Source: Geotalea uraniireducens Rf4
GTDB taxonomy: Bacteria > Desulfobacterota > Desulfuromonadia > Geobacterales > Geobacteraceae
Reading direction: 5' to 3'
Length of the DNA: 32,000 bases
Assembly: GCF_000016745.1 (NCBI RefSeq)
Contig: NC_009483.1
Span: 510,001 to 542,000 of the forward strand
Below are positions 4,215 to 27,432 of the stretch, piece after piece; position 1 is the stretch's first letter; each line of letters starts with the position of its first letter. The position numbers and the translations under genes are program-made. The notes beneath the pieces are model-generated. The model worked only from the letters and a program-made list of their open reading frames with translations, had not been told where the DNA came from and searched no databases.

Positions 4215-4298
4215 TACCCGCGTGTCTGCTTGACTGCCGCCTGCCGGAAAAAACGGGACAGGCGGCAGCATTAACGAACGAAAAGGAGCAATCAAGCT

Positions 4299-5504: not shown

Positions 5505-5541
5505 ACGAGTCACAGCACAGACCTGATTAAGGAGAGAGACC

Positions 5542-5859: not shown

Positions 5860-5911
5860 CACAGGGCGCGGGGGGCAGCCCTCCCCGTGGCTTATTTATG
5901 AAGGGAGGAAC

Positions 5912-7273
5912 ATGATGAAACAACGCGTAACCGGTGCCCTGGCCCTGCTTGCGGCCTCCGCCATCCTGGTCGGTCCGGCCTTCGCAGGTAATGTCGGAAT
6001 CGGGCGGGACAAGACGATAGCCGCCACAATGGGGAAGGCCAAAACCCTTGCCGAACTGGCAAAGATGTACGACTCAAGTTCCTGCATCGAATGTCATCAG
6101 GACAAGCACGACGAATCGCAGAAGTCCATACATTCGCGCTCCATCTTCGGTACGGCGCGGACGGCGCTGACCATAATGACCACCATCGAGAACGGTCTCA
6201 TGGAAGAGCCGTACTCGGGGGTGAAGAGCCCGAAGGACGTCAAGGTGGAACACCTGATGGGGTGCGCCAAGTGCCATCTGCCGCAACTGGCCGATGCCGA
6301 TGACTCGGTGGCCCAGGAGATCGTTACCACCCTATACGACTGGAAGACCGCCCTGAAGAAGAAAGACAAGGTTGCGGCAATGAAAGAAGAAGAAAAACTC
6401 AAGAGCGTCAGTATCAACTGTCTTATCTGCCACAACCGCAATGCCATCACCCACAAGTGGCAGGACGGCTATGCGAAGGCGGGGGTGATCTACGGCTCAA
6501 AGGACGGTGACCACCCTTCGGACAAGTTTCCCAAGATGGCAGTAAGTCCCATCATGAGCGAAGCTATCCAGTGCGGTCAATGTCACGGCATGGGACCGAA
6601 CCTGGAACTGGATGAGCCGACCCAGTGTTGTACGAGTTACGGCAGCTATCTCTGGGCCTACAAGTCCGAGATAGGGCAGAAGAACTGCCAGGACTGCCAC
6701 ATGAGGGAGAGCAAGCTCGGCCACAACATCCAGGCTTACCGTGACCCGGCGATGGCCAAGGCGGCGGTGGATTTCAAGACCGAAACATTCGGTTACTACT
6801 GGCGTGACGGAGCAGACATCAAACCGAAAGCGGTGGTCAAGGTGGAAATGATCAACCGGGCCGGACACTCCATCCCTGATGGCTGACCGACCCCCAACCG
6901 ACTGGTTCTGTCGGTAATAGCAAAAACGAAGGATGGCAAAGAAGTGTTCAACCAGGAGAAGATCTACATGCCGGTACCGCAGCAGTTGGGTCGTGGCGAC
7001 CGGATGGGGCGCGGCCCCTACGAAAAGAGCGGGTTGATTGAAGACACCGGGTTGCCGCCGGGCAAAGCAGTCCACGAGCGTTTCGATATCATGTTCCCGA
7101 TTGAAGAGGTGGAAGTGGACGGCAAGTTTGTCAACAAACCCGCGACCTACGACCTGGACGTCGAGGTGAAGCTCTGGTATCTCCCGTTCGGCCCGCTCGG
7201 AAAGCCGAGCAGCGATCCGTTTCTATGGCGGGAGTTCAGCAAGACCGTCAGCATCAGCATCAAAGGGAAGTAA
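5912..7273 (+). CDS. extKL: Pentaheme c-type cytochrome, predicted selenoprotein (TGA 6884-6886 read as Sec); fusion of track ORFs 5825-6886 and 6944-7273
   Basis: GGGAGGA RBS before ATG 5912. Signal peptide ...GPAFA/G. Five CXXCH motifs (CIECH, CAKCH, CLICH, CGQCH, CQDCH). The downstream track ORF is in the same frame (6944-5825 = 1119 = 3 x 373). Codons 6887-6943 are open and have no RBS of their own. The same architecture is present in the paralog. Confidence 0.75.
6884..6915 (+). promoter_or_regulatory. Candidate bacterial SECIS: UGA plus downstream stem-loop
   Basis: TGA at 6884-6886. Stem ACCGAC (6897-6902), loop TGGTTCT (6903-6909), stem GTCGGT (6910-6915). The GGUU in the loop lies about 20 nt from the UGA. 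The sequence is identical in the paralog. Confidence 0.6.
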
Positions 7274-8518: not shown

Positions 8519-9895
8519 ATGGCAAAACAGGTATGGAGAAAGGGGCGGATCGTGCTGGCGGGCATCTGCGGCGTTGTCGCGCTAACCTTGCTGGCCATGT
8601 GGGGCTGCGGCACGAGCGGGTATGACAATCCCTCGGCCGCAGTGGTGACAACAAAAACCGCCACCGCCCTGATTCAGGCGGCCGACCTGAAGCGATGGGC
8701 GGATGCCGGGCTGGTGAACAAGGCGGGGGGGTATGACCGGGTGGTCATTCTTGAAGTTACCACCAATACCAACAATTATAACGGTGAGCATATCCCCGGT
8801 GCCATCAGCGTAAACCGCGCCACGGATATTGCGGTGCAAAGGGTGGAGGGACCGGCTCTCACAGGTGATCTGGTGGCGGACGGCAAGATGATGGACGCGC
8901 TTATCCAGCGCTGTGGTATCGACCAGAACACCACCATCGTTTTCACGACATCCGAGGCCGAGATGAACGCGGACAATCACTACAATCTCACGCGCGGGTA
9001 TGCGACGTTCCGCTACTGGGGCTTTCCGAAAGAGCGGCTGAAGGTCCTCGACGGCGGCAACAAGGCTTGGAAGGCGGCGGGGCTGCCGATGACCACCATA
9101 GTTCCCGGCATCAAGAGCTCCACGTACTGCGTGACCCCCGATAATACCAACAGGGTTCGCGACGACCTGCGGGCCACCTTGTCCGACATGATCAAGGCGG
9201 TTCAGGCTGTCCAGGCGGGGACGGCCACGTATGATTTCATTGACGGCCGTGCGGATGGTGTGCCCGGTGAAACTCAGGACATTATTGACACAACATTGAC
9301 AGGACCAACATACGATACGACAACAACACCACCAACAATAAAATCGGTAGGTGGACTAAAAAAAGATGTTGTTTTCGAGGGTCAGGTGAAAGGCGGCAGG
9401 GGGTATGCCTATTCCAACCTGCGTGATGTGACCACGAGAAAATTTAAATCGATCTCCGACGTAATCGCCGGTTTGGATCTCCAGAAGCCAACCACCTATG
9501 TCATGTGCCGTTCAGGAAACATTGCCACGGTGCTGTTCTTCGCCATCGACGGCTACGCTTTCTATGACGGCTCAAAAAAGGCCGTTTGGTACGACGGCTC
9601 CTGGGGGCAGTGGGGGCTGATGGCAACTTCCGATCAACTCACTACCGCGGGTATAATTGCGGGAGGCAAACTGCCGGTTGGATCGGCCTGGTCGACGGTA
9701 TCGCTCACCAATATCCTCTCGTACAACAAAGACAACACTTTACGGACTGTCATCGACATTACCTCTCGCCTTGCTCCGGTCTCCCACGCCGATGTGAATG
9801 CCAACCAGACTGAAGAGGCGGACAAGGCGTATCGCAGTCCGGTATCCACCTCCGGTGGCGGTGCTACTGTTGGCGGTGGCGGTGGCGGCTGCTGA
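8519..9895 (+). CDS. extH: Rhodanese-domain outer-membrane lipoprotein (ExtH-like), short paralog
   Basis: GGGAGG RBS. Lipobox LLAMWG-C followed by GTSGYDNPSAAV (compare GTKGYDNPAAV in the paralog). N-terminal rhodanese-like domain without a catalytic Cys (VFTTSEAE). C-terminal catalytic loop VMCRSGNIAT followed by YDGSWGQWG. Tail ...GGGATVGGGGGGC-stop. Confidence 0.75.
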   Translation: MAKQVWRKGRIVLAGICGVVALTLLAMWGCGTSGYDNPSAAVVTTKTATALIQAADLKRWADAGLVNKAGGYDRVVILEVTTNTNNYNGEHIPGAISVNRATDIAVQRVEGPALTGDLVADGKMMDALIQRCGIDQNTTIVFTTSEAEMNADNHYNLTRGYATFRYWGFPKERLKVLDGGNKAWKAAGLPMTTIVPGIKSSTYCVTPDNTNRVRDDLRATLSDMIKAVQAVQAGTATYDFIDGRADGVPGETQDIIDTTLTGPTYDTTTTPPTIKSVGGLKKDVVFEGQVKGGRGYAYSNLRDVTTRKFKSISDVIAGLDLQKPTTYVMCRSGNIATVLFFAIDGYAFYDGSKKAVWYDGSWGQWGLMATSDQLTTAGIIAGGKLPVGSAWSTVSLTNILSYNKDNTLRTVIDITSRLAPVSHADVNANQTEEADKAYRSPVSTSGGGATVGGGGGGC

Positions 9896-9971
9896 TGCCT
9901 TGCTGATGCAGTGACACTCCCCGCCCGCTTAGCTGGGGCAGGGAGCATTTCGATACCAAAGGAGCGAATGC

Positions 9972-11177
9972 ATGATAAAAATCACCAAGACAGTACGAAT
10001 TTCGACAGTGGCAGCCGGCTTGCTTCTGGTTGCCGGTACGGCCTTCGCCGGTCCGCGGATGACCTTCGGCCCCAACGACGAAGGTGCTTTGCAGATCGAC
10101 TACAAGGGGCAGTTACAGATGACGGTCCGGGATACCGGATCGGGCGAGAACAACGACGACACCACCACCAACTTCAACTTCCGCCGCAACCGGCTCGCCT
10201 TCATGGGCAAGTACGGCGAGATGCTGAGCCTCTACGTCCAGACGGAATTCACCGAAGACCAGAACGTGACCACCCTCGGCGTCGCCAGCACCAACCAGGG
10301 GACGGAATTCCAGCTCCTCGACGCGGTGATGCGCTTCAAACTGAACGACAGTTTCCATGTGAACGCCGGCAAGTTCAAGTACAACCTCTCCCGCGAGAAC
10401 CTGGAAGCGTGCGAGATGCCCCTGACTCTCGACCGGTCGCTCTTCATCCGCACCGCCTACACCACCACCCGTGACACCGGGGTAGCGGTGTGGGGCAACC
10501 TGTTCAATGACATCTTCCAGTACCGCGTCGATGCCATGGAAGGGCGCAAGGCCGTGTCTGGAGATACCGCTCCCAGTTCCAATTTCCGCTACTCCTTCCG
10601 CGGCCACGTCACGCTGCTCGACCCCGAGAACGATTACGGCTACAAGGGGACCTACTTGGGGAAGAAGAAGGTTCTGACCATCGGCGGTGCCTATCAGTTC
10701 GAACCGGAGATAGCCTATGGCGATACGGTTGCCAGAACGGACAAGAAGGATTACCAAGCCTGGACGGTTGATGGTTTCTTCGAGTATCCCCTTGAAGGAA
10801 TCGGCACAGTCACCGCTTCCGCTGCCTATGAAGATGTGGACCTGGATGATGCGTACAAAGGAGCCAATCCCGACGCGGGAACCATCGGCCTCAACGGGCA
10901 GAAAAACGGCTGGTACGTGAAGGGGGGGTACATGCTCCCGAACCTTCCGCTGCAGTTTTTCGGCCGCTACGAGAAGTGGCGTTTCGCCAGCCTCAACAAC
11001 ATTTTCGATCAGAAGGTCGACTGGTACGGGGGGGGCGCCAATTACTATTTCCGTGGCCAGAACCTGAAGCTGACCTTCGAGGCGGCACACACTGCCTTCG
11101 ACAAGGAAGGGACGGTCAACGGCGTGAGGAGCAAGGATTTCACGACGTTCGTCACCCAATTGCAGCTCATCTTCTAG
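9972..11177 (+). CDS. extI: Outer-membrane beta-barrel porin (ExtI-like), paralog 2
   Basis: Same length (401 aa) as 4299-5504. After the signal peptide only a handful of substitutions are visible. Ends TQLQLIF. Confidence 0.75.
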   Translation: MIKITKTVRISTVAAGLLLVAGTAFAGPRMTFGPNDEGALQIDYKGQLQMTVRDTGSGENNDDTTTNFNFRRNRLAFMGKYGEMLSLYVQTEFTEDQNVTTLGVASTNQGTEFQLLDAVMRFKLNDSFHVNAGKFKYNLSRENLEACEMPLTLDRSLFIRTAYTTTRDTGVAVWGNLFNDIFQYRVDAMEGRKAVSGDTAPSSNFRYSFRGHVTLLDPENDYGYKGTYLGKKKVLTIGGAYQFEPEIAYGDTVARTDKKDYQAWTVDGFFEYPLEGIGTVTASAAYEDVDLDDAYKGANPDAGTIGLNGQKNGWYVKGGYMLPNLPLQFFGRYEKWRFASLNNIFDQKVDWYGGGANYYFRGQNLKLTFEAAHTAFDKEGTVNGVRSKDFTTFVTQLQLIF

Positions 11178-11225
11178 CCCTACAGCGGTGAAAAGCCGTA
11201 ACAGACTACAAGGAGGCAGGCAGAA

Positions 11226-11546
11226 ATGAAGAAGCTGATGACAACGATATCCGTGTTCTTGGCGACGGTAGCGCTGGCGGCAGTTGCCCTGGCGGCGAAC
11301 GCATCCTTCACCGGCAAGGTGACCAAGATCGACGGCACGAAGGTAACGGTAACGGCCGAGCAGGATATCCCTTCGTGGGTGAAGAAGGGGGCCAACGTCT
11401 CCGCCTTGGGGGGGGCTCCCAAGGTTCTCGAGGTGAAGGGGAAGGAGATGGTATTGCGGTTCGGCAAGGAGAAGGCGGCGACGATCAAGACAGACTCAGC
11501 CGTCACGGTCAACGAGTCGTCGGGCGACGAGCTCCAGGGGTGCTGA
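11226..11546 (+). CDS. extJ: Small secreted protein (ExtJ-like) ending in a C-terminal Cys, paralog 2
   Basis: AAGGAGG RBS, signal peptide, 106 aa, ends SSGDELQGC-stop. Confidence 0.7.
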   Translation: MKKLMTTISVFLATVALAAVALAANASFTGKVTKIDGTKVTVTAEQDIPSWVKKGANVSALGGAPKVLEVKGKEMVLRFGKEKAATIKTDSAVTVNESSGDELQGC

Positions 11547-11599
11547 TACCCGGTGCGGGGGGCTTTGCTCCCCGCGTCTGATTCATTAACGGGAGGAAC

Positions 11600-12955
11600 A
11601 TGATGAAACAACGCGTAACCGGCGTCCTGGTTCTGCTGGCGGCCACTGCTGTTTTGGTCGGGCAGGCTTTTGCCGGCGGCAAGGCGGGGATCGGCTGGGA
11701 GGAGACCATTGTCGCCAAATCGGGCAAGGCGAAGACCCTTGCCGAACTGGCGAAGATGTACGACTCCAGTTCCTGCATCGAATGCCACCAGGACAAGCAT
11801 GACGAAGCACAGAAGTCCATACATTCGCGCTCGATCTACGGCACGGCACGGACGGCGATGACCATAATGACCACCATCGAGAACGGACTGATGGAAGAGC
11901 CGTATTCGGGGGTTAAGAGTCCGAAGGACGTCAAGGTGGAGCACCTGATGGGGTGCGCCAAGTGCCATCTGCCGCAACTGGCTGATGCCGAGGATTCGGT
12001 CGCCCAGGAGCTCGTTACCACCCTCTACAACTGGAAGGGAGCCCTGAAGAAGAAAGACAAGGCTGCGGCGAAGAAAGAAGAGGAAAAACTCAAGAGCGTC
12101 AGCATCAACTGTCTTGTGTGCCACAACCGCAATGCCATCACCCACAAATGGCAGGACGGCTACCCGAAGGCGGGGGTGGTCTACGGCTCAAAGGATGGGG
12201 ACCATCCTTCGGACAAGTTTCCCAAGATGGCTGTAAGTCCCATCATGAGTGAAGCGATCCAGTGCGGCCAATGCCACGGCATGGGGCCGAACCTGGAGCT
12301 TGATGAGCCGACCCAGTGCTGTACGAGTTACGGCAGCTATCTTTGGGCCTACAAGTCCGAGATAGGGCAGGAGAGCTGCCAGGACTGCCACATGAAGAAG
12401 AGCAAGCTCGGCCACAACATCCAGGCATACCGCGATCCGGCGATGGCCAAGGCGGCAGTGGATTTCAAGGCCGAAACATTCGGTTATTACTGGCGCGACG
12501 GCGCAGACATCAAACCGAAAGCGGTGGTCAAGGTGGAAATGATCAACCGGTCCGGCCACTCCATCCCCGACGGCTGACCGACCCCCAACCGACTGGTTCT
12601 GTCGGTAATAGCAAAAACGAAGGATGGCAAAGAAGTGTTCAACCAGGAGAAGATCTACATGCCGGTACCGCAGCAGCTGGGGCGGGGAGACCGGATGGGG
12701 CGCGGCCCCTACGAGAAAAGCGGCATCATCGAGGATACGGGGTTGCCGCCCGGCAAAACTGTCCATGAGCGTTTCGATATCATGTTCCCTATAGATGAGG
12801 TGGAAATGGACGGCAAGTTTGTCAACAAGCCCACGACCTACGATCTGGATATCGAAGTGAAGCTCTGGTACCTGCCTTTCGGAACGCCGAACTCCGACCC
12901 GTTTCTGTGGCGGGAATTCAGCAAGACTGTCAGCATCAGTAAAGGTGGCAAGTAA
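11600..12955 (+). CDS. extKL: Pentaheme c-type cytochrome, predicted selenoprotein (TGA 12575-12577 read as Sec); fusion of track ORFs 11600-12577 and 12635-12955
   Basis: GGGAGGA RBS, signal peptide, five CXXCH motifs. 12635-11600 = 1035 = 3 x 345, so both pieces share one frame. Context ...INRSGHSIPDG-TGA-PTPNRLVLSVIAKTKDGKEVFNQEK.... Confidence 0.75.
12575..12606 (+). promoter_or_regulatory. Candidate bacterial SECIS (paralog 2)
   Basis: TGA at 12575-12577. ACCGAC (12588-12593), TGGTTCT loop, GTCGGT (12601-12606). Confidence 0.6.
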
Positions 12956-18783: not shown

Positions 18784-19998
18784 TCATTGCACGGCTTCCC
18801 CCATCTCGAATCCCCGGTCCAGCAGAAGGACTTCCACTTTGTCTCCCTCGGCATGCAGCGCTTCCGGAGCCAGGCGTATCAGGCCGTTACCCTGGATCAG
18901 CGAGGAGAGGCGGCCCGAGCTTTGATTGCCGGTGGTCGAGACGTGATAGCGGCCATCATGTACCGAGACGATTCCCCGGACCAGGTGGGGGCGCATCCCT
19001 TTGTTTGTTGCCGGTTCCTGCAGGACCGCCTTGACCACCGGCCGGAATATCCGTCGATGCCCCATGGACTTGAGGATTGACGGCCGCACGAACAGCTCGA
19101 ACGAGACCATGGCGGCAACCGGATTGCCAGGCAGGGCGAAGACCGGCTTCCCCTGCAGCATGGCGAATGCCAAAGGCTTCCCCGGTTTCATGTTGACCTT
19201 CCAGAAGGTGACGCTGCCGCCCAGTTCCTCGATCGCCACCTTGACGAAATCCCGGTCTCCGACCGAGACGCCGCCGGTGATTACCAGAATATCCGCGTTC
19301 AGGCCGGCCCTGATCTTGTCGCAGGTAGCATCGAGGGTGTCCGGGGCGATTCCCAGGAGTACCGGATCGCCTCCTGCATCCAGCACCTGGGCGGCCAGGC
19401 TGTAGCTGTTGCTGTTGATGATCTTGCCCGGCGCTGGTGTCGAGCCGGGTTCCAGGAGCTCATCACCCGTGGCCAGGATGGCGACACGCGCACGGCGGTA
19501 AACGGCAAGTGACGTTGTGCCCATGGCAGAGAGCATGCCGATTTCCTGGGGCCTGATAGTAGCACCGGCAGGGATAACGACATTGCCGTGCCGGATGTCC
19601 TCCCCCCGCTTGCGTACGTGTGATCCTGCCTTGACCGTCGAAGCGAGGCGGATCCATTCGCCATCCTCCTCCACATCCTCGATGGGGACTACCGTGTCGC
19701 AACCGGCCGGGACCGGGGCGCCGGTCATGATCCTGATCGCCTCTCCGGGCGGCACCGGGGCGGTGCGCACCTCTCCCGCCGGCAGGAAGCCGGTGACCTT
19801 CAGACGATTGTCGTTAAGCGCTGCATGGGAGAATGCGAATCCATCCATGGCGGAGTTGTCGGCCGCCGGGATGTCCCACGGGGCGATGTGGTCCTCCGGG
19901 GTGACCCTGTTCAGCCCCTGGAACACGGAAACCTTTTCCGTTTCCAAGGGAGTGATATATTCCAGGATGGTCCGTTGCGCTTCCTCGATGCTGACCAT
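18784..19998 (-). CDS. moeA: Molybdopterin molybdenumtransferase MoeA
   Basis: MVSIEEAQRTILEYITP... N-terminus. Typical NSAMDGFA, GDELLEPG and PGNPVAAMVSF blocks. The track start at 20070 is an over-extension. Confidence 0.85.
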   Translation of the reverse strand: MVSIEEAQRTILEYITPLETEKVSVFQGLNRVTPEDHIAPWDIPAADNSAMDGFAFSHAALNDNRLKVTGFLPAGEVRTAPVPPGEAIRIMTGAPVPAGCDTVVPIEDVEEDGEWIRLASTVKAGSHVRKRGEDIRHGNVVIPAGATIRPQEIGMLSAMGTTSLAVYRRARVAILATGDELLEPGSTPAPGKIINSNSYSLAAQVLDAGGDPVLLGIAPDTLDATCDKIRAGLNADILVITGGVSVGDRDFVKVAIEELGGSVTFWKVNMKPGKPLAFAMLQGKPVFALPGNPVAAMVSFELFVRPSILKSMGHRRIFRPVVKAVLQEPATNKGMRPHLVRGIVSVHDGRYHVSTTGNQSSGRLSSLIQGNGLIRLAPEALHAEGDKVEVLLLDRGFEMGEAVQ

Positions 19999-20093
19999 GG
20001 GTGCGATTTCTCCTATATTGATTCGGTGGCTGAATATCTGAATGGTAAGGGCTCGGCTTGCCGCACCCAATCTGTGGCGGGCGCAGTCCGCCC

Positions 20094-20597
20094 CTACATC
20101 AGGAATTTCGTCTCGATGAAGTCGGCAACCATGTCGGCGTCGTTGAGGTCAAGCACCGGCACGTCCAGTTCAAGCTTCCCGTCGCTGGCCACCGCCACCA
20201 GGGACGGGTCGTGCTCCTCCCCCCGGCAGAGCAGCGTCGTGCTTCTCTCCTGACGGTTGAGCTCGATCTTCGGCATGGAGCTCTTCTTGAACCCCTCGGT
20301 CAGGACGATATCCACATCGGAGAAATAGGTCGAGAGGAGTTCCTCGATGGGCGGTGACGCGGCATGTTTCTTCACCAAGGCCAGCTTCTCCGGCGAGGAG
20401 ATCAGCATGGTATCGGCCCCGGCCGCGGTCAGACGGTGGCTGTCTTTTCCCGGGTGGTCGATGTCGAAGCGATGGGCATCGTGCTTGACGACTCCCACCT
20501 TGTATCCACGCTCTTTCAGGTGGCCGATGACCTTTTCCAGCAGGGTCGTCTTGCCTGTGCCGGACTTCGCCACGAATGAAACCGCCTTTACCGTCAT
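20094..20597 (-). CDS. mobB: Molybdopterin-guanine dinucleotide biosynthesis adapter protein MobB
   Basis: P-loop SGTGKTTLLEKVI, then GVVKHDAHRFDIDHPGKDS. Confidence 0.85.
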   Translation of the reverse strand: MTVKAVSFVAKSGTGKTTLLEKVIGHLKERGYKVGVVKHDAHRFDIDHPGKDSHRLTAAGADTMLISSPEKLALVKKHAASPPIEELLSTYFSDVDIVLTEGFKKSSMPKIELNRQERSTTLLCRGEEHDPSLVAVASDGKLELDVPVLDLNDADMVADFIETKFLM

Positions 20598-21190
20598 AGA
20601 TTTCCTCCTATTTTTGCAAATTCCTCCGGGGTGTTGATGTTCAGAAAAGCCCTTCCGTCCCTGTCGAACCGGGCAAGTTCTTCATACGCCACATACCTGA
20701 CCCGGACCTGCGGATAATAGGCGTAGGCGCAGAAGTCGCCGCTATCCAGAAGCCTCTTGATCGGCCCGAGACAGCTTTTCGCGTAAAGCGCGAAGAGCGG
20801 CTCGTAACCGTTGGCGGTGGTTGGCACAACCGCATCGTAGCCGTTTCTGAGGGAGCAGAGGTAGCGAAGAACCTCTGCGCTCGGAAAGGGAAGGTCGCAG
20901 GAGGAAACGAAAACGTACTCCGTCGCTGCGTTATGGAGGCCGGTATAGAGTCCCCCCAGGGAGCTGCCGTGGTAGATGTCCGGCAAAACCGGGAGGCCGT
21001 AATCGGCAAAGCGTTCCTCACGGTTCCCCACCAGAACGACCTGTGCGAAACTCTCCCTGAACACCTCCAGTACCCTCTCGAAGAGCGGCTTGCCGGCAAC
21101 TTCCAGAAATGCCTTGTCCTTCCCCATGCGGCGGCTCTTCCCGCCGACCAGGATAACCCCGGTTATGTCTTGTTCCGGATTTTCGTGCAT
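20594..21190 (-). CDS. mobA: Molybdenum cofactor guanylyltransferase MobA
   Basis: GVILVGGKSRRMGKDKAFL nucleotide-binding motif. 4-nt overlap with mobB. Confidence 0.85.
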   Translation of the reverse strand: MHENPEQDITGVILVGGKSRRMGKDKAFLEVAGKPLFERVLEVFRESFAQVVLVGNREERFADYGLPVLPDIYHGSSLGGLYTGLHNAATEYVFVSSCDLPFPSAEVLRYLCSLRNGYDAVVPTTANGYEPLFALYAKSCLGPIKRLLDSGDFCAYAYYPQVRVRYVAYEELARFDRDGRAFLNINTPEEFAKIGGNL

Positions 21191-21209: not shown

Positions 21210-21326
21210 CTATTGATCCTTCTTCTCGACTTCTTTGGGATTTGCAAGCTTGGGCTCTTCTTCAGCGGCCTTCTTGAAGCTCCTGATGGCGCCGCCGAGT
21301 GAAGCCCCCAGTTGGGGGAGTTTGCC
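21210..21326 (-). pseudogene. tatA: 5'-truncated tatA remnant (lacks start codon and TM helix)
   Basis: The minus strand reads GKLPQLGASLGGAIRSFKKAAEEEPKLANPKEVEKKDQ-stop, which is the amphipathic-helix and tail part of TatA/E. In frame upstream there is a TAA 13 codons before the Gly, and no frame encodes the M..G..ELIIILVIVLLVFG-type TM segment. Confidence 0.6.
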
Positions 21327-21563
21327 GTTGGTTATAGCAAAATCGCATAACGACAGGCAACAAATTTAACGTTTGACGTTCTCGGCGCGAACCGGCTGTG
21401 AGTTCGTTCTCTCCTCACTCCGGCCCTGTAGTGTCTGCCGGATTCAACGGACGTTTCCGCCCCGGTTGTTTTAACACGAAGACGCAGACGCAGAGAAAAA
21501 GCTCAAAAAACAAGCCGTTGATCTTCTTTGCGCCTGCGCCTCTGGTTTTGCTGCCGTCACAGC

Positions 21564-22067
21564 TCACAGGCTGTCGGCAATCTTCAGCGCCACAGTGCGG
21601 GCATGGGCCTGGATCTGCTCGGGGGGCATTTCATCGACACCGAAGAGCTTCCGGTCAAATTCGTAGAGCCGGTCGGCGATGATGACTTCCGGCTTGAGCC
21701 CGTCGATGACGCCGTTCATCATGCGCGACGAACAGTTGACGAAACACCCCTCCAGGGCAATCAGTCTCGCCGCGCTGCGCACCAGCTTCCGCTGGCCGGT
21801 GTCCTTGGTGAAGGCTCCCCCCAGGCAGATTCTGACCGTTTTCTCCGGGGCGAGTGAGTGGCAGAGCAAGTTGGCAGCCTGGCGGGCTACCTCGCCCCGC
21901 AGGCATGCCCCTTCGCAACAGATCACCGCCACCGGCTTTGCCTTCTGGCGATCCGCGAAATCCTCGCAGAGATGGCAGCTGTTCCGCGCCTTTTCGATCC
22001 GTGCCACTTCATATCCGTTCGCTGTTCCTGTTTCGTTACCGCTTCCGCAGCAAGCTTTGTTACTCAT
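21564..22067 (-). CDS. Cys-rich DGC-domain-like (putative zinc/metalloid-binding) protein
   Basis: 167 aa. N-terminal CCGSG, CHLCED, VICCEGACLRGEVA and LEGCFVNC blocks resemble the DGC (putative zinc-binding) domain family. This assignment is from memory of the family, not a search. Confidence 0.5.
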   Translation of the reverse strand: MSNKACCGSGNETGTANGYEVARIEKARNSCHLCEDFADRQKAKPVAVICCEGACLRGEVARQAANLLCHSLAPEKTVRICLGGAFTKDTGQRKLVRSAARLIALEGCFVNCSSRMMNGVIDGLKPEVIIADRLYEFDRKLFGVDEMPPEQIQAHARTVALKIADSL

Positions 22068-22148
22068 GGTTTTCCTCCATCTGTGGAATATACTGCTTCA
22101 CATACCAGAGACGGCGGATGAGCGAAAAAGGATACACTTTTACGGAAA

Positions 22149-22715
22149 TTATTGTCCGGCCTTCCGGTCACACATGAGTTCGTTGCGTTCATCCCGATAT
22201 AAGTCGCACTGGCACGTCATTGCTTCTCGTAAGCGGGTGCGGGCGCGATGGAGCCGTATCTTGACCGTGTCGATACTTACCGCGAGAATTTCGGCAATCT
22301 CCTGGTTTGTGAATTCGTCGAATTCGCTCAGGATAAGGGCGGCGCGGTAGTCCTCGGGCAACTGGTCAACGATGCCGCGGATGCAGGCGTTCATCTCGTG
22401 GCGGATGTATTCCCGGTCAGCTCCCGGAGAGTCGAGGTCGGGAATATCATCTACGGATGCCGTATCATCGAACGGGAGCTCGTTTATGCGCTGTTTTGTC
22501 CCTGATGAGAGGGCATGGTCATGGGCGGTGTTTGTCGCTATGCGGTAAATCCATGTGGCCAGTGATGATTCCCCGCGAAAGTTGGCCAACGACTGGCTGA
22601 CTTTCAGGAAAACGGCCTGGGTGAGATCGAGAGCGTCTGACCCGCCAGAGAGATGGGAGATATACCGGTGGATCTTCGGCTGGAATTCCCGGTAAACGGT
22701 GTCGAAGTTTTTCAA
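22149..22715 (-). CDS. ECF-type sigma-70 factor with C-terminal Cys-rich extension
   Basis: GGAGG lies 6 nt before TTG 22715, which overlaps the acr3 stop (TTGA). Sigma-2 region ([19 protein letters not shown]...[10 protein letters not shown]) and sigma-4 region ([46 protein letters not shown]). Tail [22 protein letters not shown]. The rest of the 524-aa track ORF is an out-of-frame overlap with acr3. Confidence 0.8.
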
Positions 22716-23764
22716 GCCATGCCTCCAAACCACCGTCGCTGGAACCAGAAGGCCACGTTGACCAGTCCGATCATCACCGGCACCTCCACCAGCGGGCCGA
22801 TGACTGCGGCGAAGGCGGCGCCGGAGTTGAGGCCGAACACCGCCACCGCAACGGCTATGGCCAACTCGAAGTTGTTGCTGGCGGCGGTAAAGGCCAGGGT
22901 CGTGGTCTTGGAGTAGTCGGCGCCCAACCGCTTTCCCATCCAGAAAGAGACCAGGAACATCAGCACAAAGTAGATCAACATCGGGATGGCGATCCGCACC
23001 ACGTCCAGCGGCAGTTGCACGATGAGGTTCCCCTTGAGGCTGAACATGACGACGATGGTGAAGAGGAGGGCGATCAGGGTGATGGGGCCGATCCGCGGCA
23101 CCACCTCCCTGTGGTAGCGCTCCACGCCCATTGTCTTGACGCCGATGAGCCGCGTCAGCGCCCCGGCGATGCAGGGGATGCCCAGGTAGATGAAGACGCT
23201 TTCGGCGATTTGGCGAATGCTCACCTCCACGAGGCTTCCGGAAAGGCCGAAGAGGGGCGGGAGGACCGTGATGAAGAACCAGGCGTAGACGCTGTAGAAG
23301 AGGACCTGGAAAATGCTGTTGAAGGCGACGAGTCCGGCGGCGTACTCGGTGTTTCCCTTGGCCAGTTCGTTCCAGACGATGACCATGGCGATGCAGCGGG
23401 CGAGGCCGATCATGATAAGGCCGACCATGTACTCCGGCTTGTCGGGGAGGAAGACTATGGCGAGGATGAACATGAGTGCCGGACCGATCAGCCAGTTCTG
23501 GACGAGCGACAGCCCCAGCACTTGCTTGTTGCGGAACACCTCCGGCATCTCCTCGTATTTCACCTTGGCGAAGGGGGGATACATCATGAGGATCAGCCCG
23601 GCGGCTATGGGGATATTGGTGGTCCCGACCTGGAAGCGGTTGATGAATGTTTCCACGCCGGGGACGAACCAGCCGAGCCCGACTCCCAGCGCCATGGCGG
23701 CGAAGATCCAGAATGTGAGCCAACGGTCGAGGAAAGAGAGTTTTTTTGAGATGCCTTCAGACAT
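22712..23764 (-). CDS. acr3: Arsenite efflux permease, ACR3 family
   Basis: 350 aa with about 10 TM segments. N-terminus [22 protein letters not shown] and overall pattern typical of Acr3. Sits downstream of arsR. Confidence 0.85.
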
Positions 23765-23921: not shown

Positions 23922-24263
23922 TTAGGCGCAGTTGCTTCTGTGGGAAAAGGAAACAAGCCTCTTCAGGTCTTCATCGGCAGTGCAGAGCTCGGGCAGGCGC
24001 TGCCTGAGCAGTTCGGCCAGCTCCTTCTGAATGGCGCCCCGCTCGGCAGCGACGGAATAGTACATCCAGACCCCCATGCGGCGGTCCTCCACCCAGCCGG
24101 CATTTTTCAGATAGGCCAGGTGCCGGGAGGCGGTGGACTGGGGAAGCTGAAGGGCGGCCATGATGTCGCAGACGCACAGCTCCCCCTCGTGCAGGAGGAG
24201 GGCCAGGATGCGAAGGCGGGTTTCGTCGGCCAGGGCTTTGAATATCCGTGCAGTATTTTTCAT
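23922..24263 (-). CDS. arsR: ArsR-family arsenite-responsive repressor
   Basis: ALADETRLRILALLLHEGELCVCDIMAALQLPQSTASRHLAYLKNAGWV contains the ELCVCD metalloid site and the wHTH. Confidence 0.9.
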   Translation of the reverse strand: MKNTARIFKALADETRLRILALLLHEGELCVCDIMAALQLPQSTASRHLAYLKNAGWVEDRRMGVWMYYSVAAERGAIQKELAELLRQRLPELCTADEDLKRLVSFSHRSNCA

Positions 24264-24269
24264 GGCTTA

Positions 24270-24298
24270 AATATATCCGCATAAAAGGATATGGTCAA
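24270..24298 (-). promoter_or_regulatory. Promoter/operator module P2 of arsR (apparently leaderless transcript)
   Basis: The minus strand reads TTGACC-ATATCCTTTTATGCGGA-TATATT-TAAGCC-ATG. The -10 ends 6 nt before the arsR ATG and there is no SD. The spacer contains ATATCC-N8-GGATAT. Confidence 0.55.
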
Positions 24299-24545: not shown

Positions 24546-24854
24546 ATGAAAAAGTTTTTTGTCTTGCCGGCAGTTCTGACGGCCATGGCGGCAACGCCGG
24601 CACTGGCCGTGGTCGGCGGAGGCGACATCACCCTGAAGAACAAGGGGGGCGATGTGGTCTTCAGCCACAACTCGCACGTTGATGGGGCGGGCCTCGAATG
24701 CACCGCCTGCCATGACAGACTCTATCTAAGCAAGGCCCAGCACAGGAAGGTCACCATGAAGCAGATGCAGAAGGGTAAGTCCTGCGGTGCCTGTCACAAC
24801 GGAAAGAAGGCGTTTTCAGTGAAGGGCGATTGCGTCAAGTGCCATAAAAAATAG
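24546..24854 (+). CDS. Periplasmic triheme cytochrome c7-type (PpcA-family-like)
   Basis: AAGGAGGG RBS. Signal peptide ...TPALA/VV. Three CXXCH motifs (CTACH, CGACH, CVKCH) in about 80 mature residues. Ends CVKCHKK like c7 cytochromes. Confidence 0.8.
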   Translation: MKKFFVLPAVLTAMAATPALAVVGGGDITLKNKGGDVVFSHNSHVDGAGLECTACHDRLYLSKAQHRKVTMKQMQKGKSCGACHNGKKAFSVKGDCVKCHKK

Positions 24855-24864
24855 GAGGAACGGA

Positions 24865-27432
24865 ATGGAAATCAAACGTAGAGATTTTCTGAAGGTAACC
24901 GCTGCCGCCGGCGCGGTGGCGGCCATTGGCCTGCCGAAGCTGAACGCCTTTGCAGCCGGGCAAGCCCCTGCCGCCACAGGCTCTATGAAAGGCGAATGGA
25001 TTGCCTCCACCTGCCAGGGCTGCACCGCCTGGTGCCCGGTGGAGTTTTTTGTCCAAGAAGGTCGCATCGACAAGGTGCGCGGCAACCAATTTTCCAAGGC
25101 CAATGGCGGTTACGTCTGCCCCAGCGGTCACCTGATGATCCCGCAGACCTATGACCCGGACCGGATTAAGGTTCCGATGAAGCGTACCAACCCCCAGAAG
25201 GGGCGCGGCGTTGATCCCAAATTTGTTCCCATCAGCTGGGACGAGGCCCTGGATACCCTGGCCGACAAGATGATGGAACTGCGCAAGAACAACGAGCCGG
25301 AGAAGCTGATGTACATGCGCGGCCGCTACTCTTCTACCTCCACCGACCTGCTCTACGGCACCCTGCCCAAGATCTTCGGTACTCCCAACTACTACTCCCA
25401 CAGCGCCATCTGCGCCGAGGCGGAGAAGATGGGCCCAGGCTACACCCAGGGCTTCTTTGGCTACCGTGACTACGACCTGGCCAAGACCAAGTGTCTGGTG
25501 GTGTGGGGCTGTGACCCGCTCTCTTCCAATCGTCAGGTGCCCAACGCCATCGCCAAGTTCAACGGAATCCTTGACCGCGGTACGTTGATTGCTGTCGATC
25601 CCCGTATGAGCGCCTCGGTCGCCAAAGCCAACGAATGGCTGCCGATCAAGCCGGGAGAGGACGGTGCTCTGGCCGCAGGCATAGCCCATGTGCTGCTTAC
25701 AGAAGGCTTCTGGAGCAAGGAGTTTGTCGGCGATTTCAAAGAGGGTAAAAACCTCTTCAAGGCCGGCGCCACGGTCGATGAAGCTGCCTTTGTGGAGAAA
25801 CAGACCCACGGTATCGTCAAGTACTGGAACATCGAACTGAAAGACAAAACCCCGTCCTGGGCCGCCAAAAAAACCCTGATACCCGAGGAGCAGATTATTC
25901 GTGTGGCCCGCGCCATGGGCAAGGCCGGCAGCGCATGTGCCGTCTGGATGGGGCCCGGCGTGGCCATGACACCGCGCGGCACCTACGCCGCCATGGCGGT
26001 CTACGCCCTGAACGGTATTCTCGGCTCCATCGAGACCGAAGGTGGCGTGTTCCAGAGTTCCAGCGCTCCGGTTGAGAAATTTCCCGAGATCAAGAAATCA
26101 TTTATCGATGAAATGGCCGAGCATCACGGCCATGGAAAGAAGATCGACGGGCGCGGCGCCAAGGATATGCCGGCCATGATGAGCGCCAAGCCGGGCAGCG
26201 GCGTGGTTACCAACAACGTGGCCAACGGCCTGCTCAAGAATCCGGACGCAATCAAGGTATTCATCAGCACTTGGAGCAACTTCGTCTTCTCGGCCACCGG
26301 CACTCAGCGCTGGGAAAAGGCCATGGCAAAAATGCCGTTCTTTGCCCATATGGTGACCAACGCCTCCGAGATGTCACAGTACGCCGATATCATTCTGCCG
26401 GCCACCTTTGCGCCAACCGAAAAGCTTTCGATCATCGGCAACATGGCTAATCTGCACGGCCATATATCCATCCAGCAGCCGGTGGCCAAGCCGCTTTGGC
26501 AGGTAAAATCCGAGGAGACTGAAGTAATGTGGCTCCTGGCTGAAAAGTTGAAGTCCAAAGGCTTTGCCAACCTTTACGACTACTACGCCTCTTTCGAGGA
26601 TCCTGAAACCAAGAAGAAACCGACCAACGCCTCTGAGTTCGCCGAGATCGCCGCCAGGATATCTTCCCAAAAGGTCTGGAACGGCAAGGAGAAACAAAAA
26701 GGTGATCAGATCGCCGGTTGGGCCGATTTTAAAAAGAAGGGTATCTACAACTCGGAGACCTATAAATACAAGAAGAACTGGGGCAAGGATAACCCCGAAA
26801 CCAAGAAGTTTGAGGGTAAGTTCAAGACCGAAACCAAGAAGTTTGAGTTTTACAGCGAGACCATGAAAAAAGCACTTGGCGAACATGCCAAGAAGCATAA
26901 CACCACCATCGACGACATCCTCAAGTCCAGTGGCTACGAGGCCCAGGGCGAACTGGCCTTTGTGCCGCATTACGAATCACCCAAGCGTCACGGCAGCGAC
27001 AAGGAATATCCATTCACCTTCATCGATTACAAATCCCGACTCAATCGCGAGGGGCGCAGCCAGAACACTGTCTGGTATCAGGAGTTCAAGAAGGTGGACG
27101 TGGGGGACGAGAGCTGGGATGACGTGGTCAAGATCAACCCGATAGATGGCAAGAAACTCGGCATCAAGACCGGCGATACCGTTCGCCTGACATCGACTAC
27201 CGGCTCCATCGTAACCAAGGCCAAGTTGTGGGAAGGTGTCCGTCCCGGCACCATAGCCAAATGCTACGGTCAGGGACACTGGGCCTACGGCCGCGTTGCC
27301 GCCAAGGACTACGCCAAGGCACAGCCGCGCGGCGGAAACAACAATGAACTTCTGGTTGATGATTATGACCGCCTGAGCGGTGCAACGGCACGTAACGGCG
27401 GTTTCACCGGCGTCAAGATCGAAAAAGTTTGA
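24865..27432 (+). CDS. arrA: Respiratory arsenate reductase catalytic subunit ArrA (bis-MGD molybdoenzyme)
   Basis: Tat signal KRRDFLK. FeS motif C-x2-C-x3-C-x27-C counted exactly (CQGCTAWC...27 aa...C). MRGRYS matches the (R/K)GRY motif associated with ArrA. HSAICAE is the candidate Mo-ligand Cys. 855 aa. Confidence 0.85.
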   Translation: MEIKRRDFLKVTAAAGAVAAIGLPKLNAFAAGQAPAATGSMKGEWIASTCQGCTAWCPVEFFVQEGRIDKVRGNQFSKANGGYVCPSGHLMIPQTYDPDRIKVPMKRTNPQKGRGVDPKFVPISWDEALDTLADKMMELRKNNEPEKLMYMRGRYSSTSTDLLYGTLPKIFGTPNYYSHSAICAEAEKMGPGYTQGFFGYRDYDLAKTKCLVVWGCDPLSSNRQVPNAIAKFNGILDRGTLIAVDPRMSASVAKANEWLPIKPGEDGALAAGIAHVLLTEGFWSKEFVGDFKEGKNLFKAGATVDEAAFVEKQTHGIVKYWNIELKDKTPSWAAKKTLIPEEQIIRVARAMGKAGSACAVWMGPGVAMTPRGTYAAMAVYALNGILGSIETEGGVFQSSSAPVEKFPEIKKSFIDEMAEHHGHGKKIDGRGAKDMPAMMSAKPGSGVVTNNVANGLLKNPDAIKVFISTWSNFVFSATGTQRWEKAMAKMPFFAHMVTNASEMSQYADIILPATFAPTEKLSIIGNMANLHGHISIQQPVAKPLWQVKSEETEVMWLLAEKLKSKGFANLYDYYASFEDPETKKKPTNASEFAEIAARISSQKVWNGKEKQKGDQIAGWADFKKKGIYNSETYKYKKNWGKDNPETKKFEGKFKTETKKFEFYSETMKKALGEHAKKHNTTIDDILKSSGYEAQGELAFVPHYESPKRHGSDKEYPFTFIDYKSRLNREGRSQNTVWYQEFKKVDVGDESWDDVVKINPIDGKKLGIKTGDTVRLTSTTGSIVTKAKLWEGVRPGTIAKCYGQGHWAYGRVAAKDYAKAQPRGGNNNELLVDDYDRLSGATARNGGFTGVKIEKV

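Follow-up and report, generated by a model that had tools for sequence, protein, structure and literature searches.

An ECF sigma factor gene coupled to acr3 in Geotalea uraniireducens: a conserved cysteine triad and a putative cognate promoter before a DGC-domain gene

Results

The sigma factor gene and its neighbors

The features of the locus are presented in Table 1. In the window, which is the whole 32-kb stretch of the Geotalea uraniireducens genome analyzed here, the genes arsR and acr3 are followed on the same strand by an ECF sigma factor gene, a DGC-domain gene and molybdenum cofactor genes, and the arsenate respiration side lies divergently on the other strand. ArsR scores 98.8 bits with the NCBIfam metalloregulator ArsR/SmtB model (cutoff 55), and Acr3 scores 450 bits with the ACR3 equivalog model (TIGR00832, cutoff 282.8). 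The product of arrA matches the NCBIfam ArrA model with E = 1.9e-303, below the equivalog cutoff, and ArrB-like and ArrD-like genes are located downstream of it. No terminator-like sites beyond chance expectation were found at the acr3-sigma and sigma-DGC boundaries, and no terminator-like site was found between the DGC gene and mobA.

Table 1. Features of the sigma factor locus in the window
Feature	Position	Strand	Description	Evidence
mobA, mobB, moeA	18784..21190	-	mobA 20594-21190, mobB 20094-20597, moeA 18784-20070; molybdopterin-guanine dinucleotide cofactor	Pfam
DGC gene	21564..22067	-	DGC-domain protein, 167 aa, six invariant Cys	Pfam PF08859, E = 1.5e-17
Leader hairpin (predicted)	22077..22114	-	-10 region (CCGTCT) pairs with AGATGG beside the DGC RBS; loop AAGCAG	folding
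ECF-type promoter (putative)	22110..22135	-	-35 GTATCC(TTTT) 22130-22135, 16-nt spacer, -10 CGTC(T) 22110-22113	motif scan, PWM
ECF sigma gene	22149..22715	-	188 aa, TTG start, TAA stop	Pfam r2 + r4, homologs
C-terminal extension	22152..22217	-	22 aa, residues 167-188	alignments, AlphaFold
Tail Cys codons	C170 22206-22208; C182 22170-22172; C168 22212-22214	-	C170 and C182 invariant, C168 variable	
Cys111 codon	22383..22385	-	in the first sigma-4 helix; invariant among family members	homolog alignments
acr3	22712..23764	-	arsenite efflux permease; TGA overlaps the sigma start	NCBIfam TIGR00832 equivalog
RBS of the sigma gene	22722..22726	-	GGAGG, 6 nt before TTG, in the 3' end of acr3	read from sequence
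arsR	23922..24263	-	ArsR/SmtB repressor, ELCVCD As(III)-type Cys pair	Pfam HTH_5, E = 9.7e-17
Sigma-70-type promoter (candidate)	24270..24298	-	TTGACC-17-TATATT, just 5' of the arsR start at 24263	consensus scan, 10/12; putative function
Cytochrome c7 and arrA	24546..27432	+	divergent; cytochrome c7 24546-24854, arrA 24865-27432; arsenate-respiration side	Pfam, NCBIfam

The gene at 22149-22715 codes for an ECF (group 4) sigma-70 factor. The Sigma70_r2 and Sigma70_r4_2 domains are found at residues 8-68 and 111-162 (Pfam), the TIGR02937 model of NCBIfam gives 97 bits (cutoff 42.9), and the PDB profile matches are AlgU, SigW and RpoE. The open reading frame is not a chance one, since it has more than 3000 homolog clusters, the best 120 at 63-90% identity. 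Its N-terminus, (M)KNFD, fits the pattern M[KR][DN]F[DA] of the homologs, which indicates that TTG is the right start. A longer protein of 524 residues in the same frame (22149-23723) was considered and rejected, because its upstream part is an Arg/Pro/Gly-rich, out-of-frame reading of acr3 and the homolog N-termini fit the TTG codon.

The junction of the two genes reads GGAGG-CATGGC-TTGA, with the sigma TTG (22715-22713) overlapping the acr3 TGA (22714-22712). From this overlap and the GGAGG located 6 nt upstream, the first-pass annotation of this DNA had concluded that an ECF sigma gene is coupled to acr3 and lies within the arsR-acr3 unit. Both statements are borne out, and two further acr3-sigma junctions were found. 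The closest ortholog, locus L081, has the same TTGA junction in the order arsR-arsC-acr3-sigma-DGC-mobAB, adjoining arrAB. In L094 (arsR-arsC-acr3-sigma-CMD-DGC-ArsP-Trx) the sigma gene follows acr3 after 15 nt. No conserved element was found 5' of the sigma gene in the alignment of eight homolog loci, and in different genomes the gene stands behind very different operons and promoters.

It had also been stated that no anti-sigma gene is placed next to the sigma gene, and this is correct. The DGC protein matches PF08859 only, with no zf-HC2 match in Pfam. No anti-sigma domain (zf-HC2, RskA or other) was found by Pfam in the window neighbors, and none is present among the called genes of loci L081-L094. 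The distant family members L046 and L047 do have a classical zf-HC2 anti-sigma protein.

The sigma subfamily comprises about 246-250 clusters at 50% identity (E <= 1e-30) and is widespread. It is characterized by the Cys triad described below, by the absence of an anti-sigma gene in most members, and by a putative cognate promoter immediately 3' of the sigma gene, from which one or a few small proteins rich in thiols would be expressed, such as DGC, AhpD-like CMD, and SHOCT or YgaP-like membrane peptides. The subfamily resembles ECF238, to which SigZ and CorE2 belong, in an assignment that is independent of group HMMs and phylogeny. According to Casas-Pastor et al. 2021 (PMC7826278), ECF238 is the merger of ECF24 and ECF44, with SigZ of B. 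subtilis and CorE2 of M. xanthus among its members. Its sigma factors have Cys tails of about 20 residues and no anti-sigma factors, and control through the Cys-rich extension has been proposed for them (PMC7826278). The present protein likewise has a short Cys-bearing tail, of 22 residues, and no anti-sigma gene nearby. Its best NCBIfam matches are two SigZ equivalog models, NF007215 and TIGR02959, both below cutoff (106.1 bits, cutoff 212, and 101.7 bits, cutoff 168.65), and their alignments reach into the sigma tail, to residues 180-182. Since SigZ is a member of subgroup 9 of ECF238 (PMC7826278), these matches provide indirect support for the placement.

Cysteine residues of the sigma factor

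The Pfam matches of Sigma70_r4_2, r4 and ECF end at residues 162-166. The protein extends for about 22 residues past region 4 and this tail contains C168, C170 and C182, in agreement with the first-pass annotation, where the motif CxC-x11-C was taken as the ligand set. The choice of ligands is not sustained by the homologs. Among close homologs residue 168 is Cys in 62/120, and the figures are 10/65 for the family loci and only 6/13 for the As/Hg-linked homologs. The invariant residues are C111, C170 and C182, all three being present in 120/120 close homologs. Of the three tail cysteines, only C170 and C182 are conserved. Among 150 representatives of 50% clusters, C111 is kept in 143, C170 in 135, C182 in 121, and the full triad in 118.

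A correlation of C168 with arsenic context was considered and rejected, the As/Hg-linked members being divided into 6 with Cys and 7 without. In the latter the position is occupied by Ala (L008, L026 and L031), Thr (L016 and L092), Gln (L010) or Ser (L007).

The segment formed by the linker and the start of sigma-4 contains a single Cys (EMNAC111IRG), and no CxC is found between residues 70 and 115. No invariant His occurs in the tail in the alignments. In the AlphaFold model (mean pLDDT 74.5) the tail is of low-to-moderate confidence (pLDDT 55-72), and within it a beta-hairpin, 170-174/180-184, is predicted after sigma-4, with C170 and C182 located on its two strands. No solved structure covers the tail, as the matches from sequence and fold searches of the PDB end at about residue 167.

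The triad is found family-wide, including members far from arsenic genes, and for this reason it is in itself no argument for As(III) specificity. Gating of the sigma factor through these cysteines, by As(III) or by another thiophilic signal, is plausible. The proposal that the Cys tail is a control element, made in the first-pass annotation, is in line with the published idea for ECF238 (PMC7826278).

The promoter and the genes behind it

A promoter-like element of ECF type lies between the sigma and DGC genes, beginning 14 nt past the stop codon of the former and ending 42 nt ahead of the ATG of the latter. The motif consensus is TGTATCCTTTT-N-CGTCTA. An exact match occurs once in the window, against 0.09 expected, and in the PWM scan this site scores 39 bits compared with 10 bits for the next-best site, which is antisense inside arrA. 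Motif and PWM searches of the window found no such promoter upstream of arsR, arrA, cytochrome c7 or mobA. An ECF-type promoter is thus present in the island as one site, after the sigma gene. The second regulatory layer that the first-pass annotation had suggested for the ars/arr island stands only in a limited form, because the single promoter of this kind in 32 kb precedes the DGC gene.

Of the 65 family loci, 57 have the element adjoining the sigma gene, and none of 19 unrelated ECF loci has it there. It is always oriented toward the gene adjoining sigma, on either side, and identical promoter blocks are found in the sigma-DGC spacer of seven loci, even though one of them has an insertion of 230 nt. 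A relaxed search of the ars/hgc loci recovered only the site after sigma. In L046, L047, L049 and L085 the promoter is located additionally ahead of the sigma gene itself; judged by promoter position, the sigma factor is usually not autoregulated. From this co-localization we infer that the element at 22110-22135 is the cognate promoter of the sigma factor.

The DGC gene is more than a neutral neighbor of the sigma gene. The conserved, putatively cognate promoter lies before it, and the DGC gene is probably a direct target of the sigma factor. The same gene order, sigma followed by DGC, is found in L001, L003, L081, L084, L086 and L088. Among the 76 open reading frames behind the family promoter there are 14 DGC, 11 CMD, 6 SHOCT, 4 YgaP-like, 2 VKOR, 2 OsmC and 2 DsrE proteins, and DGC and/or CMD are present in 40/65 family loci. 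DGC genes have also been found in ArsR-controlled ars operons (bioRxiv 10.1101/2022.10.17.512643).

Two features had escaped the first-pass annotation, namely the fourth cysteine, C111, and the conserved promoter between the sigma and DGC genes.

The DGC protein, which is 100% identical to a Geotalea uraniireducens protein, carries an N-terminal CxxC extension (C31 and C34) that is specific to the sigma-adjacent subfamily of 167 residues. Four residues before the CxxC it has Ala, not the His of the HxxxCxxC (ZAS) motif. No match was found among PDB sequences, and a Foldseek search with the AlphaFold model (pLDDT 74.9) gave nothing significant, with a best E of 0.06 and TM values of about 0.3-0.4. 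A weak, non-significant likeness to LMW-PTP/ArsC-like folds was seen.

Distribution and gene context

Locus contexts were taken from 80 loci out of roughly 600 genome hits, and the 65 nonredundant family loci are those defined by the C111/C170/C182 triad. In thirteen of the 65, ars, arr or hgcAB genes are no more than 8 kb away. In the clade of at least 65% identity, counted with L002, arsenic or mercury context is found in 8 of 12 loci. The other 52 of the 65 have no arsenic or mercury gene in the examined flanks (for example, L084, L088 and L093).

The arrangements of the linked loci differ. Three loci (L086, L090 and L092) combine arrABD with the order MarR-hgcAB-sigma, and in L008, L010, L016 and L031, from Nitrospirota and a betaproteobacterium, the sigma gene ends ars clusters. 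Locus L085 has the order sigma-SHOCT-DGC-CMD-ArsP-DUF2703-Trx, and both here and in L094 the sigma promoter heads an operon with ArsP and a thioredoxin-like ars gene. Regulation around the hgcAB and arr genes has been described as unknown (bioRxiv 10.1101/2022.10.17.512643). A full-text literature search gave nothing relevant that links an ECF sigma factor with a DGC domain, hgcAB or an ars operon.

Discussion

Comparison with known regulators

The sigma factor shares with ECF238 the short Cys tail, the lack of an anti-sigma gene and the SigZ models as best NCBIfam matches. However, these models are matched below cutoff, and the comparison has a basis other than the group HMMs. In the cited ECF238 literature there is no member with ars/arr/hgcAB context, a DGC or CMD target, or a TGTATCC-N16-CGTCTA promoter. 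The likeness to SigZ extends to its regulation, since transcription of the SigZ gene is not driven by SigZ itself, and very few targets have been suggested for it (PMC4105308).

CorE and CorE2 of Myxococcus xanthus (former ECF44) also have a C-terminal extension with Cys and no anti-sigma factor, and their activity is metal-dependent, which is a precedent for an on-board sensor. However, the CorE-like proteins have a CxC in the linker between sigma2 and sigma4 (PMC8999054), where the present protein has the single C111. Their tails contain four to five Cys, arranged as C-x4-C-x2-C-x-C in CorE and as CC-x3-C-x2-C-x-C in CorE2 (PMC9023288), while the tail described here is C168-x-C170-x11-C182 with only C170 and C182 conserved. 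The first-pass annotation had cited CorE-type sigma factors as background; strictly taken, the present protein is not of this type, given the lack of the linker CxC and the different Cys spacing.

OrbS of Burkholderia cenocepacia, an iron-starvation ECF factor and on-board Fe(II) sensor, has a Cys cluster on its C-terminus and no anti-sigma factor; the cluster modulates binding to core polymerase (PMC9023288). However, OrbS is a member of another, FecI/PvdS-like ECF group, its four Cys are arranged as C-x2-C-x3-C-x5-C, and the metal inhibits it rather than activating it.

The main target of ECF41 sigma factors is a neighboring CMD, oxidoreductase or epimerase gene. In this SigJ-type group a C-terminal extension replaces the anti-sigma factor and the sigma factor is placed beside a single target, as here, and CMD genes are among the targets in both cases. 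However, the ECF41 extension is SnoaL-like, about 100 residues long and without a Cys triad (PMC8999054). The present protein carries a Cys hairpin of 22 residues and no further Pfam domain, an architecture different from that of ECF41.

As(III) in ArsR and Hg(II) in MerR are typically held in three-thiolate (S3) coordination. Three Cys thiolates are thus the usual ligand set for both ions, and the ArsR of the window has the ELCVCD pair. However, ArsR and MerR have unrelated DNA-binding folds and act at operators, and they are not polymerase subunits.

Proposed mechanism and alternatives

The best explanation as a whole, with a probability of roughly 0.55, is a sigma relay that is derepressed through ArsR and fires the DGC promoter, the Cys triad probably being a post-translational gate. 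In Geotalea uraniireducens, a module of sigma and DGC would have entered the arsR-acr3 operon, which ArsR would control, behind its last gene. As(III) would release ArsR and give rise to the arsR-acr3-sigma mRNA, from which the sigma factor would be translated through coupling to Acr3. RNA polymerase with this sigma factor would then start at the promoter just past the sigma gene's own stop and lead to the DGC protein; the downstream mob and moe genes, possibly co-transcribed with DGC, may be expressed along with it. Gating of the sigma factor by the triad is probable, with either thiol redox stress or a thiophilic metal(loid) as the signal; As(III) is one candidate ligand. Two points can be raised against this explanation. 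DGC could also be produced by read-through from the arsR promoter, in which case the sigma promoter would be redundant here. In addition, since 52 of the 65 members have no arsenic or mercury gene nearby, the general signal of the family may be unrelated to arsenic.

It is possible, though less likely, that the triad has a constitutive structural role, as in a Zn(Cys)3X site that staples the hairpin onto sigma-4, and that the sigma factor is a pure transcriptional relay with activity set by its amount. The input would be that of the host operon, ArsR in this case and MarR/hgcAB or others elsewhere. Invariant Cys residues are typical of structural Zn sites as well, and the weak TTG/GTG starts and the translational coupling would suit dose control. 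Consistent with this, no conserved element precedes the sigma gene, the operons and promoters ahead of it vary by genome, and autoregulation is usually lacking, as it is in SigZ (PMC4105308). However, the characterized Cys-tail sigma factors CorE, CorE2 and OrbS use their tails for regulation (PMC8999054, PMC9023288), there are only three invariant ligands, and the free-standing loci L084 and L088 would be left without an obvious signal input.

A direct role of the sigma factor as the sensor of As(III) (or As/Hg/Sb), in which the C111, C170 and C182 thiolates would bind the ion and switch the sigma factor on or off on top of ArsR, appears rather unlikely. Exactly three invariant Cys with no invariant His in the tail would fit S3 coordination, and CorE, CorE2 and OrbS are known on-board metal sensors with Cys tails (PMC8999054, PMC9023288). 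The strong enrichment in ars/arr/hgcAB islands (8/12 loci in the clade of at least 65% identity and 13/65 overall) and the ArsP/thioredoxin-like operons headed by the sigma promoter in L094 and L085 point in the same direction. However, the 52 members without a nearby arsenic gene keep the triad just as strictly, the CxC proposed earlier is variable even among homologs linked to ars genes, and the AhpD-like CMD, OsmC, VKOR, DsrE and rhodanese proteins driven by the promoter point to general thiol/sulfur redox. Equally doubtful is the broader proposal that the subfamily represents an unrecognized class of sigma factors with an on-board three-Cys sensor for thiophilic metal(loid)s, be it As(III), Hg(II) or a methylated species. 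The class would extend across Desulfuromonadota, Nitrospirota, Acidobacteriota and other phyla, and its members would use one dedicated promoter to turn on accessory genes for detoxification, namely DGC, AhpD-like CMD and ArsP/thioredoxin, where ars, arr and hgcAB islands end.

Thioredoxin closes a negative feedback loop for SigR-RsrA. An analogous proposal, that DGC (or CMD) is both target and regulatory partner and resets or sequesters the sigma factor in negative feedback, as an unconventional anti-sigma factor or co-sensor, would draw on the tight pairing of sigma with DGC and/or CMD, on the six invariant DGC cysteines including the CxxC extension, and on four representative clusters (P0304, P0309, P0360 and P0327) annotated as sigma-CMD or sigma-CMD-DGC single polypeptides; it is improbable, as the partner varies (DGC, CMD, SHOCT, YgaP-like, VKOR) in a way unusual for an anti-sigma factor, DGC has no anti-sigma/zf-HC2 domain, PDB sequence relative or significant fold match, and the distant members with an anti-sigma factor use the classical zf-HC2 type. 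The fusions may themselves be stop-codon or gene-calling artefacts, because their linkers translate the promoter (AYPS...RLQ corresponds to GTATCC-N16-CGTCTA).

If the ArsR-derepressed relay is real, the arsenic operons of metal reducers hold a built-in sigma relay, in which ArsR controls the pump and the sigma factor, and the sigma factor controls a second, thiol-rich gene set (DGC, CMD). The link between sigma and DGC would give a handle for finding the function of the DGC family, which is recurrent in ars operons and of unknown function. With one sigma factor, one promoter and one target, the locus is a small system for testing control of ECF238-type sigma factors by short Cys tails. The sigma gene recurs immediately behind hgcAB and next to arr operons, which makes it a candidate for studying regulation there, and, if the three-Cys sensor class were true, a candidate for the missing regulator near the mercury-methylation genes. 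The compact sigma-promoter pair could also become an orthogonal expression part in synthetic biology.

A minor feature of the sigma-DGC spacer is the predicted leader hairpin (Table 1). The 96-nt intergenic segment that contains it (22060-22155) has an MFE of -22.8 kcal/mol and z = -2.5. An Rfam search of the window gave 0 matches, and RNAalifold did not recover the hairpin on the MAFFT alignment because its 3' arm is out of register there. The same hairpin architecture, with different arm sequences, is found in L001, L003, L084 and L086.

The sigma gene and its neighbourhood

The window holds the arr/ars island of Geotalea uraniireducens; its DGC protein matches one of that species at 100% identity. 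An ArsR/SmtB repressor gene with an ELCVCD motif is followed on the minus strand by acr3 (450 bits with the ACR3 equivalog model, whose cutoff is 283), the ECF sigma gene, a DGC-domain gene (PF08859, E = 1.5e-17), mobA, mobB and moeA; the cytochrome c7, arrA, arrB- and arrD-like genes are divergent from arsR. The acr3/sigma junction reads GGAGG-CATGGC-TTGA, so that the TTG start of sigma (22715-22713) overlaps the acr3 TGA (22714-22712), and a Shine-Dalgarno sequence lies 6 nt 5' of the TTG. Pfam places Sigma70_r2 at residues 8-68 and ends Sigma70_r4_2/r4/ECF at 162-166, with a tail of 22 residues beyond the last sigma domain. This overlap, the Shine-Dalgarno sequence, the Cys tail and the flanking acr3 and DGC genes had been described in the first-pass annotation and were all verified. 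The DGC protein has no anti-sigma domain in Pfam. The positions of the features are collected in the table.

Coordinates of the features discussed (window positions unless a homolog locus, L, is named)
Feature	Position	Strand	Remark
ECF sigma gene	22149-22715	(-)	188-aa ORF
DGC gene	21564-22067	(-)	167 aa
Putative sigma-dependent promoter	22110-22135	(-)	between sigma and DGC
Candidate ArsR-controlled promoter	about 24270-24298		
DGC leader hairpin	22077-22114	(-)	
DGC leader hairpin, homolog loci	L001:2549-2590, L003:8599-8640, L084:8600-8640, L086:8752-8795		
hgcA-hgcB pairs 5' of sigma	L002:7-1299, L086:6250-7656, L090:5938-7250, L092:5449-6721, L008:775-2027, L030:4636-5819		
zf-HC2 anti-sigma genes	L046:8585-8812, L047:6414-6695		3' of sigma
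TatA-like remnant	~21217-21335	(-)	
Tandem segmental duplication	2274-7000 and 8519-12600	(+)	~5.7 kb
DDE transposase (PF01609)	843-2018	(-)	edge of island

Conserved cysteines and classification

Homologs of sigma form more than 3000 clusters at 90% identity (E <= 1e-10), the best 120 of which are 63-90% identical to it. When 1.84 billion representatives were searched with a profile, 246 clusters (50% identity) matched at E <= 1e-30, and their alignments mostly extend through residue 185-186. Judged by these alignments, sigma is a member of a large, well-defined subfamily. C111, C170 and C182 are Cys in all 120 closest homologs and in 143, 135 and 121 of 150 representatives, respectively; the full triad is found in 118 of the 150, and most of the remainder are truncated. 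Among the genome loci compared, members with as little as 33% identity still have the triad, and unrelated ECF sigmas lack it. The remainder of the tail, beginning [LF]Y[HR], is likewise strongly conserved. A beta-hairpin (170-174/180-184) is predicted after the last sigma-4 helix by AlphaFold with modest confidence; PDB sequence and fold searches found no solved structure covering the tail.

The first-pass annotation had proposed the tail CxC-x11-C cysteines as the As(III) ligands. C168, the first of these, is Cys in 62 of the 120 closest homologs and Ser in 44, and Cys is not among its seven commonest states in the 150 representatives (A, S, E, K, R, N or gap). It is missing in 7 of 13 syntenic homologs, so that this ligand set fails on the very conservation that its proposers had asked of it.

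The best NCBIfam matches of sigma are two SigZ models, aligned to residues 180-182 with scores under the equivalog cutoffs. SigZ and CorE2 are named members of group ECF238, which has a Cys-containing C-terminal extension of ~20 residues, sometimes a linker Cys, and no anti-sigma, and for which control via the Cys tail has already been proposed (PMC7826278). The CorE-like signature combines a linker CxC with a 4-5-Cys domain (PMC8999054, PMC9023288); in its strict form it is found neither in the sequence nor in the alignment of sigma. Because the SigZ models match best and this signature is lacking, the protein is best described as a putative member of the uncharacterised SigZ-like part of ECF238, a placement made by model matches and described group features. 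Systems of this kind, in which an ECF sigma carries a short Cys tail and lacks an anti-sigma, are already described. In the literature searched, no report was found of the C111 plus C-x11-C signature, the dedicated promoter, DGC/CMD targets (CMD, AhpD-like carboxymuconolactone decarboxylase family) or recurrent insertion at ars/arr/hgcAB.

A conserved promoter motif behind the sigma gene

Alignment of the sigma-DGC spacers of seven loci gave two invariant blocks, GTGTATCCTTTT and CCGTCT, both of which survive a 230-nt insertion separating the two genes in one locus. The layout is of the usual ECF type, with a -35 box, a T-tract after it, a 16-nt spacer and a CGTC -10 box. GTATCC-N15-17-CGTC has one match in the window against 0.09 expected by chance; this site scores 39 bits with a PWM from 45 instances and the next best 10 bits. 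The search of the island for an ECF-type promoter, advised earlier, thus yielded a single site. The motif lies <=1.2 kb from sigma in 57 of 65 nonredundant triad loci (46 exact) and in 0 of 19 unrelated ECF control loci; five non-triad loci that have it encode tail variants of the same sigma family. It always points toward the adjacent gene, on either side of sigma. From this co-localisation we infer that sigma recognises the promoter and that DGC would be its direct target in the window.

Sigma itself is also preceded by the motif in four loci, and alignment of eight homolog loci gave no conserved element 5' of sigma. Since the PWM scan found no second site in the window, sigma is not autoregulated here; SigZ, likewise, is not responsible for its own transcription (PMC4105308).

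The tally of promoter-driven genes comprises 76 ORFs, among them DGC (14), CMD with CxxC (11), SHOCT small membrane proteins (6), YgaP-like (4), VKOR, OsmC, DsrE and zf-HC2 anti-sigma (2 each, the last in the two most distant members) and Rhodanese (1). Taken together, they indicate thiol or sulfur stress in a general sense. Among triad-bearing members, the most divergent (38% identity; Zixibacteria and Nitrospinota MAGs) carry a classical zf-HC2 anti-sigma gene 3' of sigma and the motif 5' of it, the layout of a conventional autoregulated sigma/anti-sigma pair inside the same family.

Among representative protein clusters, P0304, P0309 and P0360 are predicted as sigma-CMD and P0327 as sigma-CMD-DGC single polypeptides. 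Their linkers (AYPS...RLQ) translate GTATCC-N16-CGTCTA, so the promoter is intact within the fusion ORFs. The fusions may be missing-stop or gene-calling artefacts; at the least, they bear out sigma, CMD, DGC as a conserved order.

In the sigma-adjacent DGC subfamily (167 aa), an N-terminal extension of ~45 residues bears the motifs CC(G) and CxLCE; the invariant cysteines number six overall (C31, C34, C55, C81, C108, C112). The extension is missing from DGC proteins of other ars operons, such as the 124-aa DGC in L094. PDB sequence and Foldseek searches gave no solved or significantly similar structure, and hence no informative structural relative.

The DGC leader can fold into a hairpin in which the -10 region (CCGTCT and the next 7 nt) pairs with the stretch adjoining the RBS. 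The loop, AGCAGT, is conserved and the arms vary in a compensatory manner (ATGGAAT/ATTCCAT, ACGGTAA/TTACCGT, ACGGTGA/TCACTGT, ACAGTGA/TCATTGT); CMD-type loci lack the hairpin. Read-through transcripts of the ars operon would carry it whole. Transcripts started by sigma would be without the 5' arm, so the hairpin might tie DGC translation to the sigma promoter.

Arsenic and mercury contexts

Sigma-after-acr3 synteny, for which a wider search had been advised, does occur elsewhere. The closest ortholog (L081, 88-90% identity) has arsR-arsC-acr3-sigma with the same TTGA overlap, DGC-mobA-mobB after it and arrAB adjoining; L094 (66%) has arsR-arsC-acr3, a 15-nt gap, then sigma-CMD-DGC-ArsP-thioredoxin-like. 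The order in L085 is sigma-SHOCT-DGC-CMD-ArsP-DUF2703-thioredoxin-like, then a molybdate-type transporter. In L008, L010, L016 and L031 (Nitrospirota and a betaproteobacterium) sigma terminates ArsP-Trx-arsR-(arsC)-acr3 clusters. L086, L090 and L092 have arrA-arrB-arrD, MarR-hgcA-hgcB, then sigma-DGC or sigma-CMD, and hgcAB lies 5' of sigma in L002, L008 and L030.

Genes of ars, arr or hgcAB type are near sigma in 13 of 65 family loci, counted in fetched flanks of at most 8 kb; by a rough estimate only, chance would bring a random gene this near ~1% of the time. In the clade of >=65% identity, 8 of the 12 known contexts include them. The association has exceptions: sigma lies beside a xanthine-dehydrogenase-type enzyme in L084, a sulfate-type ABC transporter and PALP enzyme in L088, and nitrogenase-like and URO-D genes in L093. 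Operons of ars genes under ArsR control are known to include DGC genes, e.g. ArsR5-ArsP-ArsE-DGC in P. mercurii (bioRxiv 10.1101/2022.10.17.512643).

The hgcA-hgcB pairs (mercury methylation), a CdhD-domain protein and a 96-aa ferredoxin, lie directly 5' of sigma homologs in several phyla, often preceded by a MarR gene and with arrABD alongside. The literature searched has no mention of an ECF sigma adjoining hgcAB.

Proposed mechanism

ArsR is an As(III)-released repressor. In the best-supported model, As(III) would free ArsR from the candidate promoter, the arsR-acr3-sigma mRNA would be produced, and sigma would be translated by reinitiation at the TTGA overlap. The sigma holoenzyme would then initiate at its putative promoter and DGC would be expressed, possibly with mobA-mobB-moeA, since the scan showed no terminator. 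Gating of sigma activity is the likely role of the Cys triad. Its three invariant thiolates would be suitable for As(III) or Hg(II), and just as suitable for structural Zn binding or redox switching; arsenic sensing by sigma is plausible but unproven. Sigma, promoter and DGC form a compact, directly testable system.

Other features of the window

The 373-nt DGC-mobA spacer holds a TatA-like C-terminal remnant (...KLPQLGASLGGAIRSFKKAAEEEPKLANPKEVEKKDQ*). Since it has no start codon or transmembrane part, it probably represents a tatA gene of the arr island that has decayed. The copies of the tandem duplication share 73-90% DNA identity, and each contains a rhodanese-domain protein, a phosphate-selective porin O/P family protein (401 aa) and a multihaem cytochrome. 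The transposase at the island edge is consistent with a mobile or rearranged region.
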